Part shown: positions 4,099 through 35,493 of the stretch, in pieces
Layout of the letters: every line of letters begins with the position of its first letter
Numbering within the stretch: position 1 is the stretch's first letter
From: Thermoplasmata archaeon
GTDB lineage: Archaea; Thermoplasmatota; Thermoplasmata; Lutacidiplasmatales; UBA184
DNA: 64,000 bases
Assembly: GCA_028864975.1 (NCBI GenBank)
Contig: JAGWLG010000013.1
Location: 2,618-66,617 of the forward strand
Direction of reading: 5' to 3'
Position numbers and translations under genes: made by a program
Notes under the pieces: generated by a model
Databases searched by the model: none
Seen by the model: the letters and a program-made list of their open reading frames with translations, nothing else
What the model was told of the DNA's origin: nothing

Positions 4099-4806
4099 AT
4101 GGAGACGCTGCTCGAGGAGCGGCCAAGGTCGGGAGAGGAGGTGATCTCCGGGGACGAGGAGCTCCTGCGACGAGGGTCGCCGGTGGTCAGGGTGGGACGT
4201 TTCCGTGAGCCCGTGGTGTCGGTCGGCGTTTCGCAGAAGGGGAGCGAGCCCTTCGTGGACCGGGCGGCCGAGGCAGGGCTCCCGGTCGTCCGAAGGGTCT
4301 CGGGAGGAGGCCCCTTGCTCCATGGCCCGGGGGACCTCTTCTGGTCGTTGGTGCTCCCCCGCGCCCACTCGCTCGCCGGAGCTGGGTTCGTCCGGAACTA
4401 CGCCCGGCTTGGGGCCGGCTGGACCACGTTCCTTGCGACACACGGGATCTCGGCGGGATGGACCTCGCCCCCGGCCTCGAACGAAGGGTACTGTCTCCTC
4501 TCCTCGCGAGGAGAGGTGCTGGCATCGGACGGGAGGGTGCTCGGAGGAGCAAGCCAGCACGTGACCCAACGTGCCCTGCTCCACCACGGGGTGGTGAATT
4601 GCGCTCTCGACCGCGACCTGCTCTCGCGGATCTTCGGCCTCCAGAGGGAGGAACTCGCTCTTCTGACGTCCTTGGAGGAGCTGGGCGTACCGTCGGACTT
4701 GGTCCAGCTCCGCACCGTAGCCCGTCACCTGACCCGAGCTTTGGAAACGCTCAAGGGCGTGGAAGGCGTTCCCGTGTCCCCCAGTGACGACAAGAGGGTC
4801 AGCTGA
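4099..4806 (+). CDS. Biotin/lipoate A/B protein ligase family protein (LplA/LipM-like)
   Basis: This is the in-frame ATG at 4099 inside track ORF 3643..4806; the upstream 152 codons overlap the opposite-strand redoxin gene and look like junk. Motif VVRRVSGGGPLLHGPGD matches the RRxSGGGAVxHD lipoate-ligase signature. Confidence 0.8.
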   Translation: METLLEERPRSGEEVISGDEELLRRGSPVVRVGRFREPVVSVGVSQKGSEPFVDRAAEAGLPVVRRVSGGGPLLHGPGDLFWSLVLPRAHSLAGAGFVRNYARLGAGWTTFLATHGISAGWTSPPASNEGYCLLSSRGEVLASDGRVLGGASQHVTQRALLHHGVVNCALDRDLLSRIFGLQREELALLTSLEELGVPSDLVQLRTVARHLTRALETLKGVEGVPVSPSDDKRVS

Positions 4807-6945: not shown

Positions 6946-7385
6946 TACGGGGATCGCACTTGCGGACCGCGAGCCTTTGGGCCGAGGAGACGGCGGCTAG
7001 GCGGCCTTCGAAAGGAGCCTACCTTCGGTGCGATCACCTCGGGCCCGCGGTTCGGTCGGAAGCACCTCGGTTCGGCGCGGGCCGAGGCGGTGTGCCTGCC
7101 CGGCTCGAGGCCGGGCGGGGGAGAACTGCTCACCGGGATCACCTGTGCTCAGAACCCTGCGTGGAGGGGGCTCAAGAGCGCTGACTACCTGAGCAGGTAG
7201 GACATTCCATCGAGGCCTGCCCTCATGCCCTTGAGCGAAAGCATCACGGAGGGAGGGCTCCTGCTCCCACCGGGAAGGGGCCTTCACGCACCTGCTCCGG
7301 CGCTGGGAGGGAGGGGCGAAAGGCTACCCGAACCCGTGAGGTGCCTCCCGAGAGGCATAAGACCTCCTCAAATCATGGGCTCGCG

Positions 7386-33188: not shown

Positions 33189-33593
33189 TTTATCGACGCT
33201 GGCCCCACGCTCACCACGGGGCCCTCCCGAGGGGCGCCAGGCAGCGGAGCTCTGACGGCAGAGCTCCCCCTACGGGCTCTTCGGCGGTGGATGTCTGGCA
33301 GATCCCCGACGGAGAGGTCCCGGGGAGCGACACCGGGGTGAGCCTTGGGATGGCCCAGGTGATGGTCTCCTTTCATCTCGAAGGAGTTGGGACCCCCGGC
33401 CAGCGTCGTCTGGCCGAGGCGAGGGTCGAGTTCTCCGGAGGGACATGAGCCGACCCGACGACCGATGGCTCGGCCCCCCGGATGCCGTTCTTCTCCTCGA
33501 GGAACGGCACCGAACCGACCCCCTTCACCTCCCTTGGGCTGGGGCGGACCCACAAGCCGAGCGGTTTGAGTCCCCCGCCAAGCGTACTGCAGG

Positions 33594-34001
33594 TCACCGC
33601 CCCACATGTTGCTCGACCCATCGCAGGACACGCTCGGCCTGGGCCAGGGCACGTTCGGCTTCATCGGCGGAGAGTCCGTCTCCCCCATACTCCACCCGAT
33701 TCTTGAGGTCCAGAACGGAGAGCACCCGCCGCGTGACCACTTCCAGCCCCTCGGTCGGAGCGTCTTTCATCAACCGAACGACGTCTCGGTGGTCCTCCCC
33801 CTTGTTCCTGAGGCCGAGCTTGCGTACGGTGAACGCGTCGCAGGCGGAGATGACGGCGTGTATCGCGGCCAGTCCTGCGCCTGAATACCGTAGGTCTTCG
33901 AGCGCCCATCGAGCCATCCCCTCAAACTCACGAGCTTTGGACAGGTAGTTCGTCGACTCTCTGGAGGCGACCTGCTCGGTCCTGGGGGGAGGTCGTGTCA
34001 T
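33594..34001 (-). CDS. hepT: HEPN-domain toxin (HepT-like)
   Basis: 135 aa with the Rx4-6H motif in LRNKGEDHRDV and a helical composition. It has a 4-nt overlap with the upstream MNT gene. Confidence 0.85.
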   Translation of the reverse strand: MTRPPPRTEQVASRESTNYLSKAREFEGMARWALEDLRYSGAGLAAIHAVISACDAFTVRKLGLRNKGEDHRDVVRLMKDAPTEGLEVVTRRVLSVLDLKNRVEYGGDGLSADEAERALAQAERVLRWVEQHVGR

Positions 34002-34591
34002 GACGATCTCAGCAGGTCCACGCCCTCGCGCTCCACGCTCTCCAAGAAGCTCGGGCTGATGCGCCCATGAAGGTCATCTCGGGTCACGATCAGCGGAGCC
34101 AGGACGAGGCCGTATCGATCCCGGATCTTCTGGCGGACCGGAAAGAGCAGGTCCTCCACGCCTTGGCGATCGGACGCCCGTCGAAGTTCGATGAGGATGT
34201 CCACGTCGCTCCAGCCTTTCTCAGTCCCGCGAGCCACGGAACCGAACAGCAGGGCCCGCCGCACCCGTGGGGAGCGCAGGCCCTCCGTCAGCTCCCTCTT
34301 GAGCTCGCTCTCCAGGGCCTCCTCGGCTCGGAAGAGGGCGCGAAGAGGCCCGAGGAGGGCATTCTTCGGCTCAAGCGTCCATTGATGAATGCGACCCACG
34401 ACCCGACGGTCGATCACCCCCTCGCCTTCGAGAAGCGCCAACGCACCCTGAACATGGGAGAGAGCCAAACGACCGCTGCGAGCCAATTCGGGAGCGGTGA
34501 ACGGCTCCCCCGGGGATCGCGTCAGCACTCGGAGAACATGGAGGGTACCTTTCCCCCTCAGGAGATCATCCAGTGGGCGGTGAACTCTCAT
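33998..34591 (-). CDS. mntA: wHTH plus minimal nucleotidyltransferase (MntA-like antitoxin)
   Basis: NTase motifs are LLFGSVARGTEKGWSDVDILIEL, and the N-terminal winged helix is LHVLRVLTRSPGEPFTAPELAR. The ATG at 34591 is used (the track start at 34594 is a TTG). Confidence 0.88.
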   Translation of the reverse strand: MRVHRPLDDLLRGKGTLHVLRVLTRSPGEPFTAPELARSGRLALSHVQGALALLEGEGVIDRRVVGRIHQWTLEPKNALLGPLRALFRAEEALESELKRELTEGLRSPRVRRALLFGSVARGTEKGWSDVDILIELRRASDRQGVEDLLFPVRQKIRDRYGLVLAPLIVTRDDLHGRISPSFLESVEREGVDLLRSS

Positions 34592-34600
34592 CAACCTGGA

Positions 34601-34622
34601 TATAGGTCGTACAACCTATAAA
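34601..34622 (-). promoter_or_regulatory. Palindromic TATA-containing promoter/operator candidate of the mntA-hepT operon
   Basis: The sequence tataggtcgtacaacctata is a perfect 7-bp-arm palindrome (TATAGGT / ACCTATA). The minus-strand TTTATAGG box is centred about 28 nt upstream of the ATG at 34591. Confidence 0.5.
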
Positions 34623-34624
34623 GA

Positions 34625-35025
34625 GGTCGTAGGCGCCAAGGCGGATTCGAACGCCCGTAATGGCAGAGTTGTGGGCCCGCCGTACGACTTTCTATGATCG
34701 GGGACGAGGCACCAACTCAAGATGGCGCGCGCTACCCGCGCTCGCCTTCGCGTGGTCGTGCCGCCCCCCAGGATCCTACGGACCTGTGGGCGCGGGCAAG
34801 GTTGCGCACGCGGTCCCGCGCCTCGGGCGGGGCCCGCACGCTACAGCGGGAAGCGCGCGGGCTTGTGTTCATCGGGACGGACAGACCGAGAAGAACGCCT
34901 CTCGATCGCGATGGGGCTCGCCCTGGGGTGTTCAACCATCGAGCGTGGGGCCCTTTCCCTCTCCTCGGGCCGGTCCCTGGGGGTGGTCGGCGAGGGGCCG
35001 GGGCCAGCGCGTGGGGTCCTGAGGC
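34625..35025 (-). ncRNA. Candidate structured non-coding RNA of unknown class (tRNA-like T-loop at its 3-prime end)
   Basis: This is a 437-nt gap between genes in which only Arg/Pro-rich junk ORFs occur. On the minus strand, 34656-34632 reads GGGCGTTCGAATCCGCCTTGGCGCC (a T-loop TTCGAAT plus an acceptor-like strand). A long-range inverted repeat links ccgccccccagg (34761-34772) and cctgggggtgg (34976-34986). I could not complete a cloverleaf, and the strand and ends are uncertain. Confidence 0.25.
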
Positions 35026-35031
35026 GCGCCG

Positions 35032-35493
35032 TCACGCGTTCGCCCGCATCGCGTCCTCGACCATCTCGAGGGCGAGCGCCACGTCCTCGGGGCCGTTCAA
35101 GGGAACCGTCGCCCAATCCGCCGAGGGACCCCTCGTCTTCACACGGTGGTCGAGGTTCCCTTCTGCCTTCAGTTCTTTGATCCGCTGCCGGATCAGCCGG
35201 ACATCCATGCGGCTGTCGCCATGGAAGTGGGCGATCTCTCGTCCCCCAACGAAGTAAGAGTGGCTGTCCCCGTACCTCGAGGGGCGCCGGGAGAGGTCCG
35301 CAAGGGCACACAGCCTCCGCTCCAAGTCTTCTCGAACCGTCATGTCCGCCGGGGAGAATACCGAACGCTCAGCATAGTCCTTCCCCGCCGCGAGCGGAAT
35401 CCCCCCATCCAGAGGTGTGTAGGAATCTGCCGATGGCGAGGGAAACCTCCAGGGAATTTCTGTGGCTGTGAGCCGATGGAGGGCACGCGTCAC
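35032..35493 (-). CDS. Hypothetical protein (luciferase-domain/DUF5519-like, from memory)
   Basis: 153 aa. The C-terminal half (SHSYFVGGREIAHFHGDSRMDVRLIRQRI) resembles that small family. Confidence 0.6.
   Translation of the reverse strand: MTRALHRLTATEIPWRFPSPSADSYTPLDGGIPLAAGKDYAERSVFSPADMTVREDLERRLCALADLSRRPSRYGDSHSYFVGGREIAHFHGDSRMDVRLIRQRIKELKAEGNLDHRVKTRGPSADWATVPLNGPEDVALALEMVEDAMRANA

Follow-up and report, generated by a model that had tools for sequence, protein, structure and literature searches.

Background

Crossover sublocations of tyrosine integrases at the T-loop and at the 3′ end were reportedly described by Williams in 2002, and integrase-mediated gene capture in Archaea is said to have been described by She et al. 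in 2001. Integration in a tRNA gene (tDNA) regenerates the target, and the displaced fragment marks the end of the island (PMC4383910). In the tycheposon islands of Prochlorococcus, newcomers displace earlier elements further inward, along with partial tRNAs (10.1101/2020.12.28.424599), and in Archaea integrated elements can drive inversions and translocations, with events mediated by insertion sequences (IS) and by attachment sites (att) both documented (PMC8371274). Here, we analyzed a 64,000-nt stretch of DNA from a Thermoplasmata archaeon (GCA_028864975.1, contig JAGWLG010000013.1, positions 2,618 to 66,617; the window), in which a 437-nt gap at 34595-35031, next to a toxin-antitoxin islet, carries a tRNA-like T-loop. 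The original prediction had offered an atypical tRNA, a decayed tRNA at an old integration site, or part of a larger unclassified non-coding RNA (ncRNA). We find, with a probability of roughly 85%, that this T-loop belongs to a fossil site of recombination: the 3′ end of tRNA-Val(UAC), comprising the T-loop, the T-stem 3′ strand and the acceptor 3′ strand, in a displaced position.

The host genome is a 3.6-Mb archaeal metagenome-assembled genome (MAG) of 67% G+C with tRNA genes of archaeal type, and the window lies on its contig C46. Soil and peat Thermoplasmata MAGs hold the closest named relatives of one conserved neighbor gene.

Results

Sequence and position of the T-loop fragment

A search against 40 related genomes found only two short portions of the gap, which has a local G+C content of 68%, to be conserved. 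The first, 34595-34654, has 83-85% identity to three genomes of the same genus (G001-G003) and contains the T-loop and 3′ acceptor strand together with the palindromic TATA/operator that belongs to a mntA-hepT operon, and the second, at ~34745-34838, matched an IS located elsewhere. No match in the 40 relatives was found for 34657-34744 or 34859-35031, apart from a weak arm alignment of the first ~25 nt. On the minus strand, the predicted motif is present at 34656-34632 and reads GGGCG TTCGAAT CCGCC TTGGCGCC. In a fuzzy-pattern search of the genome, the fragment agreed with the consensus fragment GCGTTCGAATCCGCCCCGGCCCA at 19 of 23 positions, 15 of them contiguous, leaving four changed by decay of the core. 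Its central part, TTCGAATCCGCC, is present in a single tRNA of the genome, tRNA-Val(UAC), which lies at c5471-5543 of contig C6 downstream of a block syntenic with G001-G003.

The same position is informative in each of the three relatives. In G001, an intact tRNA-Val(UAC) stands at this very spot, its end 10 nt ahead of the same TATA palindrome and winged helix-turn-helix (wHTH)-minimal nucleotidyltransferase (MNT) gene, an unoccupied arrangement with the intact tRNA against the same flank. In G003, a 3′ fragment lies beside the MNT gene, with an intact tRNA-Val ~590 nt upstream on the same strand, and the order in G002 is tRNA-Val, two small units, fragment, mntA-hepT and at least three further fragments. 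In G002 and G003, the tRNA (0.6-2 kb upstream of the fragment) and the fragment are in direct orientation on one replicon and bound inserted DNA. Of the readings first offered, this supports the decayed tRNA at an old integration site beside the islet, as the 3′ tRNA-Val(UAC) fragment of the window abuts the MNT-HEPN cassette in the way that the intact tRNA-Val does in G001.

A chance T-loop resemblance in G+C-rich intergenic DNA was weighed here, given that the TTCGAAT-type motif is short and that base composition leads us to expect ~1 match to the 23-mer at ≤4 mismatches per whole genome. What makes the match significant is its context: measured from the mntA promoter, it lies exactly where the relatives carry tRNA-Val or a fragment. 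This orthologous placement beside the conserved promoter in three other genomes, and the fact that all remaining ≤4-mismatch matches in the genome are real tRNAs or att fragments, refute the chance reading, to which we assign next to no probability.

Directly upstream of the fragment, the stretch 34655-34683 takes in both GGCGG and the 25 nt that the original prediction had proposed to remove as an intron. MAFFT aligned it to the arm GTCCCCACCACCA(C/T)A(A/T)GCG, which precedes the fragments in G002, in G003 and on contigs C6 and C36 of the same genome. Because this similarity is weak, we only infer its identity as the decayed left arm of an integrated element, which is probable. Such an arm is relevant to another explanation of the locus, the wreck in place of a second tRNA-Val gene, the 5′ two-thirds of which an IS630 insertion and later deletions would have removed, with no site-specific displacement. 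An IS630 relic does sit 90 nt upstream of the T-loop fragment, GGCGG, the T-stem 5′ strand, lies 25 nt upstream (with a chance of ~0.2, estimated from base composition, of occurring within ~50 nt), the region upstream is faintly tRNA-like, and G001 has a whole tRNA-Val at this spot. However, the T-loop is directly preceded by GCG, the triplet of every displaced type-1 fragment, where the tRNA itself has CGG, and the ~25 nt beyond this resemble the element arm in the alignment and not the tRNA body. A derived acceptor change, GGCGC, is common to the window fragment and G003, and at the orthologous spot both G002 and G003 have fragments that are clearly displaced and an intact tRNA upstream. We therefore consider a wreck in place unlikely. 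Conservation is limited to the part from the T-loop to the 3′ end, and what lies upstream of it in G002, in G003 and in the window bears no relation to a tRNA body.

tRNA-Val arrays in the same genome

Following the real tRNA-Val(UAC) on C6, copies of its 3′ end recur on the same strand at 4561, 2405, 1537 and 629, and further copies are found on the short contig C36 at 3494, 2446 and 1697. Both C6:1-5543 and C36 carry tandem cassettes of 0.9-2.1 kb without integrase genes, each of which ends in the last ~14-23 nt of tRNA-Val. The cargo includes wHTH/RelE-like pairs, an SDR, a DinB protein and a HAD hydrolase, and two cassettes in one array are 82%-identical copies. Most fragments have the common left arm GTCCCCACCACCACAA-GCG, a second arm type with GGGGACTCAAACC is also present, and a hairpin that mimics a T-arm, GGATTCGAACCG-N5-CGGTTCGAGTCC, follows tRNA-Val and several of the fragments. 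Together with the T-arm of the tRNA itself, the hairpin arms amount to three T-loop-like copies (direct, inverted, direct), a layout that may represent a recombinase binding architecture. No second copy of the gap was found in this genome by blastn at word size 9, and the other tRNA-Val fragments came up only in the fuzzy-pattern search.

Synteny of a UbiD-family decarboxylase with a tRNA-Val(UAC) ~3.4 kb away was observed in 55 Thermoplasmata loci from MAGs (L022-L097). The sequence just downstream of this tRNA differs in almost every one of these genomes, a variability that fits a long-standing integration hotspot.

The mntA-hepT cassette and its predicted promoter

The islet gene next to the fragment, mntA, is 61-75% identical (tblastx) to the gene beside tRNA-Val in G001-G003, and hepT orthologues come after mntA in all three. 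The window holds exactly two att-type sites, the type-1 fragment before mntA and a type-2 site beyond hepT (Table 1), and the Pfam content between them is limited to NTP_transf_2/wHTH and HEPN, with no recombination genes. The type-2 site has a 14-mer core with one mismatch to the 3′ end of tRNA-Val, and its arm matches C6 1537-1577 in the same genome, G003 L011 18868, and G002 L013 19309 and L014 1992. After hepT, G003 also has a type-2 site and G002 has a type-1 site, its type-2 sites being elsewhere in the array. With a site on each side, the MNT-HEPN operon (1.1 kb) forms a cassette of its own between two repeats derived from tRNA-Val, an arrangement also seen in G003 and G002. A search for related loci in the genome contigs seeded with MntA returned no confirmed relatives.

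Across all four genomes of the genus, the promoter and palindrome columns (inverted repeat I2 in our listing of the region) hardly vary, although the adjoining tRNA fragment drifts. From the archaeal TATA consensus and the wHTH of MntA, a promoter, a leaderless mntA transcript and an autoregulatory operator are probable. This TATA/operator palindrome is the sole selected sequence next to the fragment.

Table 1 Features of the gap, the adjoining islet and related hairpins
Feature	Position	Strand	Details
Displaced 3′ fragment of tRNA-Val(UAC), type-1 att fragment	34632-34654	-	GCG + TTCGAAT + CCGCC + decayed acceptor 3′ strand/discriminator TTGGCGCC
Probable decayed left arm of integrated element, GGCGGGCCCACAACTCTGCCATTACGG	34655-34683	-	MAFFT alignment, 8-nt indel
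mntA promoter	34601-34622	-	TATA box TTTATA at 34622-34617 in palindrome TATAGGT-N6-ACCTATA at 34620-34601; ~25 nt before ATG at 34591
mntA, winged-helix + minimal nucleotidyltransferase, antitoxin-type partner of HEPN	33998-34591	-	Pfam NTP_transf_2 4.9e-9; weak Polbeta, MarR_2
hepT, HEPN-domain toxin-type partner	33594-34001	-	Pfam HEPN 8.5e-6; start overlaps mntA end by 4 nt
Type-2 att-type fragment, GGGGACTCAAACC-N14-TCCGCCCCAGCCCA	33535-33575	-	starts 19 nt past hepT stop
IS630-family transposase relic, 38 codons	34745-34858	-	SRC..PPEARDRV..HRSVGSWGA..REGE; DNA and tblastn matches
G+C-rich spacer, IS relic to stop codon of upstream gene	34859-35031	.	no Rfam hit, no match in 40 relatives
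Upstream gene, Luciferase-domain protein	35032-35493	-	Pfam Luciferase domain complete, at end of gene
T-arm-like hairpins	C6 c5440-5470, C6 c4530-4560, C6 c1505-1536, G003 L012 c630-663		directly after tRNA-Val or fragments

Search for a tRNA or a structured RNA

ARAGORN found no tRNA at the gap when run on this region of the window, and with lowered thresholds, with and without introns, it produced only sub-threshold, inconsistent calls. Rfam gave 0 matches over the whole window at gathering thresholds and 0 on either strand of 34300-35300 at E≤10 with RF00005 included, compared to 66.6 and 69 bits for the intact tRNA-Val of G001 and G003, which served as positive controls. Elsewhere in the window, ARAGORN reported a 97-nt tRNA-Ser(CGA) at 7071-7167 of the plus strand, which is unlike the genuine tRNA-Ser genes of the genome; no Rfam tRNA exists anywhere in the window at the gathering threshold, and this call is probably a false positive.

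A functional atypical archaeal tRNA, for example with anticodon CAU and with a non-canonical intron in the T-arm that an archaeal endonuclease would splice to restore GGCGG/CCGCC, draws on features that are really present. The predicted GCGCCAT strand was located at 34728-34722, and cutting out 34676-34652 (GCCCACAACTCTGCCATTACGGGCG) would indeed bring GGCGG against TTCGAATCCGCC and give a perfect T-arm. The 72-nt layout left by this deletion has six of seven acceptor stem pairs (GCGCCAT/TTGGCGC, with a U-U mismatch), a D-stem-like 4-bp pairing (TGAG/CTCG) and CAT in a loop-like context, and Archaea are known to have introns at non-canonical positions (PMC4090602). Nevertheless, ARAGORN called no tRNA on the spliced model with the 25 nt removed. 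When single excisions of 8-70 nt, and second excisions of 8-60 nt after the 25-nt deletion, were scanned, 32 of 8396 variants were called as tRNA; every one of these calls needs a second excision, their anticodons are GGT or GAG and never CAT, and their acceptor starts shift. Twelve control versions with a shuffled 5′ part gave 0-26 calls.

The anatomy of the candidate points the same way. The original prediction had itself seen no pairing anticodon stem, and this was borne out, as the 5′ strand CCCCG faces AAAGT in register and has no 3′ partner. None of the possible intron starts (GCCC, CCCA, CCAC, CACA) has 4-bp complementarity to an exon-2 start (TTCG, TCGA, CGAA, GAAT), and the only pairing of the proposed intron, which starts GCCCACA, is its internal GCCC/GGGC. 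Without a 4-bp helix at the junction of intron and exon 2, there is therefore no bulge-helix-bulge. The upstream half of the supposed tRNA is also missing from G002 and G003, where a gene end or a hairpin precedes the fragment. With no hit, no anticodon stem, no splice motif and an unconserved 5′ part, the atypical-tRNA reading is already largely refuted, and we regard it as extremely unlikely.

A T-loop and an acceptor-like strand would also be expected if the gap were transcribed into a split-tRNA 3′ half or into a larger unclassified ncRNA with a tRNA-like 3′ domain, and 437 nt without a good open reading frame (ORF) would leave room for it. The gap, described as structured, is not unusually so, with minimum free energy z-scores of -1.58 (minus strand) and -0.40 (plus strand) against dinucleotide shuffles, near the shuffled level. 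A long-range inverted repeat had been taken to suggest a larger fold; its arms (34761-34772 and 34976-34986) are near-complementary, but the repeat does not rank among the seven best in the ~600 nt around the gap, where several chance-level repeats are as good or better. Neither a covariance-model hit to any Rfam family nor conservation of the region in the relatives, beyond the att piece and the IS relic, speaks for an ncRNA, and these are two of the outcomes that the original prediction had named as refuting it. A transposase pseudogene piece occupies the middle of the gap. Elsewhere, the genome has an intact gene for each of the tRNA-Val isoacceptors (UAC, CAC, GAC). Moreover, homology to tRNA-Val begins only at about position 51-54, so that the anticodon arm is absent and the fragment is not a 3′ half. 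A split tRNA or ncRNA is thus very unlikely.

The IS630 relic

The earlier statement that only junk ORFs cover the gap is not quite accurate, as a minus-strand frame at 34745-34858 is a recognizable IS630-family transposase relic. It has 77% DNA identity to G011 L002, within a 216-aa DDE transposase ORF, and 54% amino-acid identity to that transposase over 37 aa (tblastn; E=1.9e-5 genome-wide), and the matches of the second conserved piece fall in the IS630-family DDE transposase ORF of G011 and G024. The same genome has an intact element of the IS630 family at C39:24865-25910, in which the ORF of the wHTH part overlaps that of the DDE part and a frameshift probably connects the two. The alignment of this element to the relic, 114 bp at ~70% DNA identity, sets the limits of the relic, and the family of this element is the likely source of the 114 bp. 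At the relic itself, neither a full DDE transposase nor the ends of an insertion sequence were identified. An extension of the relic over 34859-35031, where the open frame continues, was rejected, since a 97-aa tblastn alignment is driven by Pro/Arg composition beyond the 38-aa core.

Genomic context, recombinases and evidence against displacement

The left flank of the islet (29.1-31.9 kb; CLC channel and HTH_10) continues in relatives into a block matching contig C100 of the same genome, the holder of tRNA-Arg(CCG), and the 480-aa gene of the right flank (35.6-37.0 kb) neighbors in relatives a block matching contig C64. The two flanks are on different contigs in all three relatives. Because they neighbor different blocks there, 31.95-35.6 kb, with the islet, the gap and the Luciferase-domain gene, lies between two synteny breakpoints, and the comparison did not show the islet as a clean insertion between adjacent genes of the relatives.

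Several results weigh against a displaced tRNA-Val end. The 19/23 core match is by itself at about the genome-wide chance level. As C6 carries the tRNA-Val and C46 the fragment, no island from tRNA to fragment can be drawn in this genome. Neither the islet nor the tRNA-Val arrays of G001-G003 gave a PF00589 match. Finally, a faint tRNA-like residue upstream of the T-loop is possible, with 32 calls versus 0-26 in the shuffled controls, at most faintly above background. The search with PF16795 (SSV-type integrase) gave no hits at all, and the seven tyrosine-recombinase genes of the window's genome are all elsewhere, five on C73, one on C23 and one at 105.7 kb of C6. Contig-end overlaps did not join C46 to C6 or C36; the ends have repeat nodes of ~131-141 nt in common with other contigs. 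We infer an IS- or att-mediated rearrangement that parted the fragment, with its cassette, from tRNA-Val, to which the alternative is an unassembled connection between the contig of the fragment and the tRNA-Val array. Rearrangements of the kind documented for archaeal integrated elements (PMC8371274) would account for a fragment stranded away from its tRNA.

Discussion

Proposed mechanism

In the model that we favor, the displacement of a tRNA-Val 3′ end by later integrations, tRNA-Val(UAC) would be the docking site for small integrating DNA units in this genus of soil and peat Thermoplasmata. Each incoming unit would bring its own copy of the last ~20-23 nt of the tRNA, and a crossover of the tyrosine-recombinase type inside the common core, between the T-loop and the 3′ end, would restore the tRNA and move the older copy and the downstream DNA further off. 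In this order of events, the MNT-HEPN cassette, which is the unit directly after tRNA-Val in G001, follows a displaced fragment in the window's genome, in G002 and in G003 because later units would have entered between the cassette and the tRNA. The drifted core, the decayed arm, the lack of a tRNA on the same contig, and the breakpoints and dead IS630 together indicate that the fragment is most likely inert, without a present role as RNA or as a recombination site. It is a decayed bystander, a feature of a known and ordinary kind.

Comparison with described systems

The fragment agrees with the displaced tRNA fragments (attL/attR) of Islander-type islands (PMC4383910) in being a direct-orientation copy of the 3′ ~20-23 nt from the T-loop with the intact target elsewhere, and the unoccupied state in a relative and the tandem arrays at one tDNA are also as described for such islands. 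It differs in that neither the bounded segment nor the surroundings of the arrays include an integrase gene, the tRNA is on another contig and 4/23 core positions have changed. Islander filters, which require an integrase and a common replicon, would miss this fragment.

Since no integrase turned up in the islet or close to the relatives' arrays, the units resemble cis-mobilizable elements (CIMEs), which are att-flanked, integrase-less and stacked by accretion. Like the CIMEs derived from streptococcal integrative and conjugative or mobilizable elements (PMC5704250), they are small, have att on both sides and carry no integration or transfer genes; tandem stacking by successive site-specific integration at the target gene's end, and toxin-antitoxin cargo as a typical survivor of decay, are further likenesses. 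In contrast to CIMEs, the host here is archaeal, no conjugative element was identified, the units measure 0.6-2.1 kb and two arm types share one tRNA core. Tycheposon islands (10.1101/2020.12.28.424599) are comparable in that newcomers push older elements inward and partial tRNAs and remnants lie beside a conserved tRNA, but tycheposons carry their own tyrosine recombinase and a replication module, neither of which was seen here, and they belong to another domain of life and use a different target tRNA.

In integrase-mediated gene capture in Archaea (PMC8371274), captured blocks are likewise bordered by tRNA-derived direct repeats, whereas at this locus no split (SSV-type) or intact integrase (PF16795, PF00589) accompanies them and there are synteny breaks only. 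Intron-containing and split archaeal tRNA genes (PMC4090602) have in common with the locus a T-loop and acceptor strand apart from possible 5′ partners. Unlike them, the fragment has no bulge-helix-bulge, anticodon stem, covariance-model score or 5′ conservation, and it is not a member of this class. An integron was rejected as well, as no tyrosine recombinase adjoins the arrays and the repeats are tRNA-derived, not attC.

A possible cassette system

More tentatively, the fragment could be one worn site of a lineage-wide cassette system without its own integrase, anchored at tRNA-Val(UAC) in soil and peat Thermoplasmata. Such a system would consist of units of 0.6-2.1 kb with unrelated cargo (toxin-antitoxin pairs, SDR, DinB protein, HAD hydrolase) between arms that are near-identical in most units, on the left of the GTCCCCACCACCACAA+GCG or the GGGGACTCAAACC type and on the right the hairpin GGATTCGAACCG-N5-CGGTTCGAGTCC. 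The units would be inserted and shuffled singly by a trans-acting recombinase not encoded nearby, in an integron-like manner with the tRNA 3′ end as the dock. Conservation of the arms over unrelated cargo and the 82%-identical cassette pair are compatible with this proposal, and equally with the decay of integrase-bearing elements. That cassettes are still moving in trans is possible, though we hold it to be doubtful.

Conclusions

For the annotation of this locus, a candidate ncRNA or odd tRNA is replaced by a map of the gap that comprises a likely att scar, an IS630 relic and a toxin-antitoxin promoter. Where tRNA-like T-loops lie beside accessory islets in archaeal MAGs, the first comparison should be with the tRNAs of that genome and with its relatives. 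The locus provides one more example of a tRNA-Val(UAC) hotspot in soil Thermoplasmata, at which toxin-antitoxin and enzyme cassettes accumulate without a resident integrase. If it is true that these cassettes are exchanged in trans, the hotspot would constitute a simple archaeal platform for gene capture.

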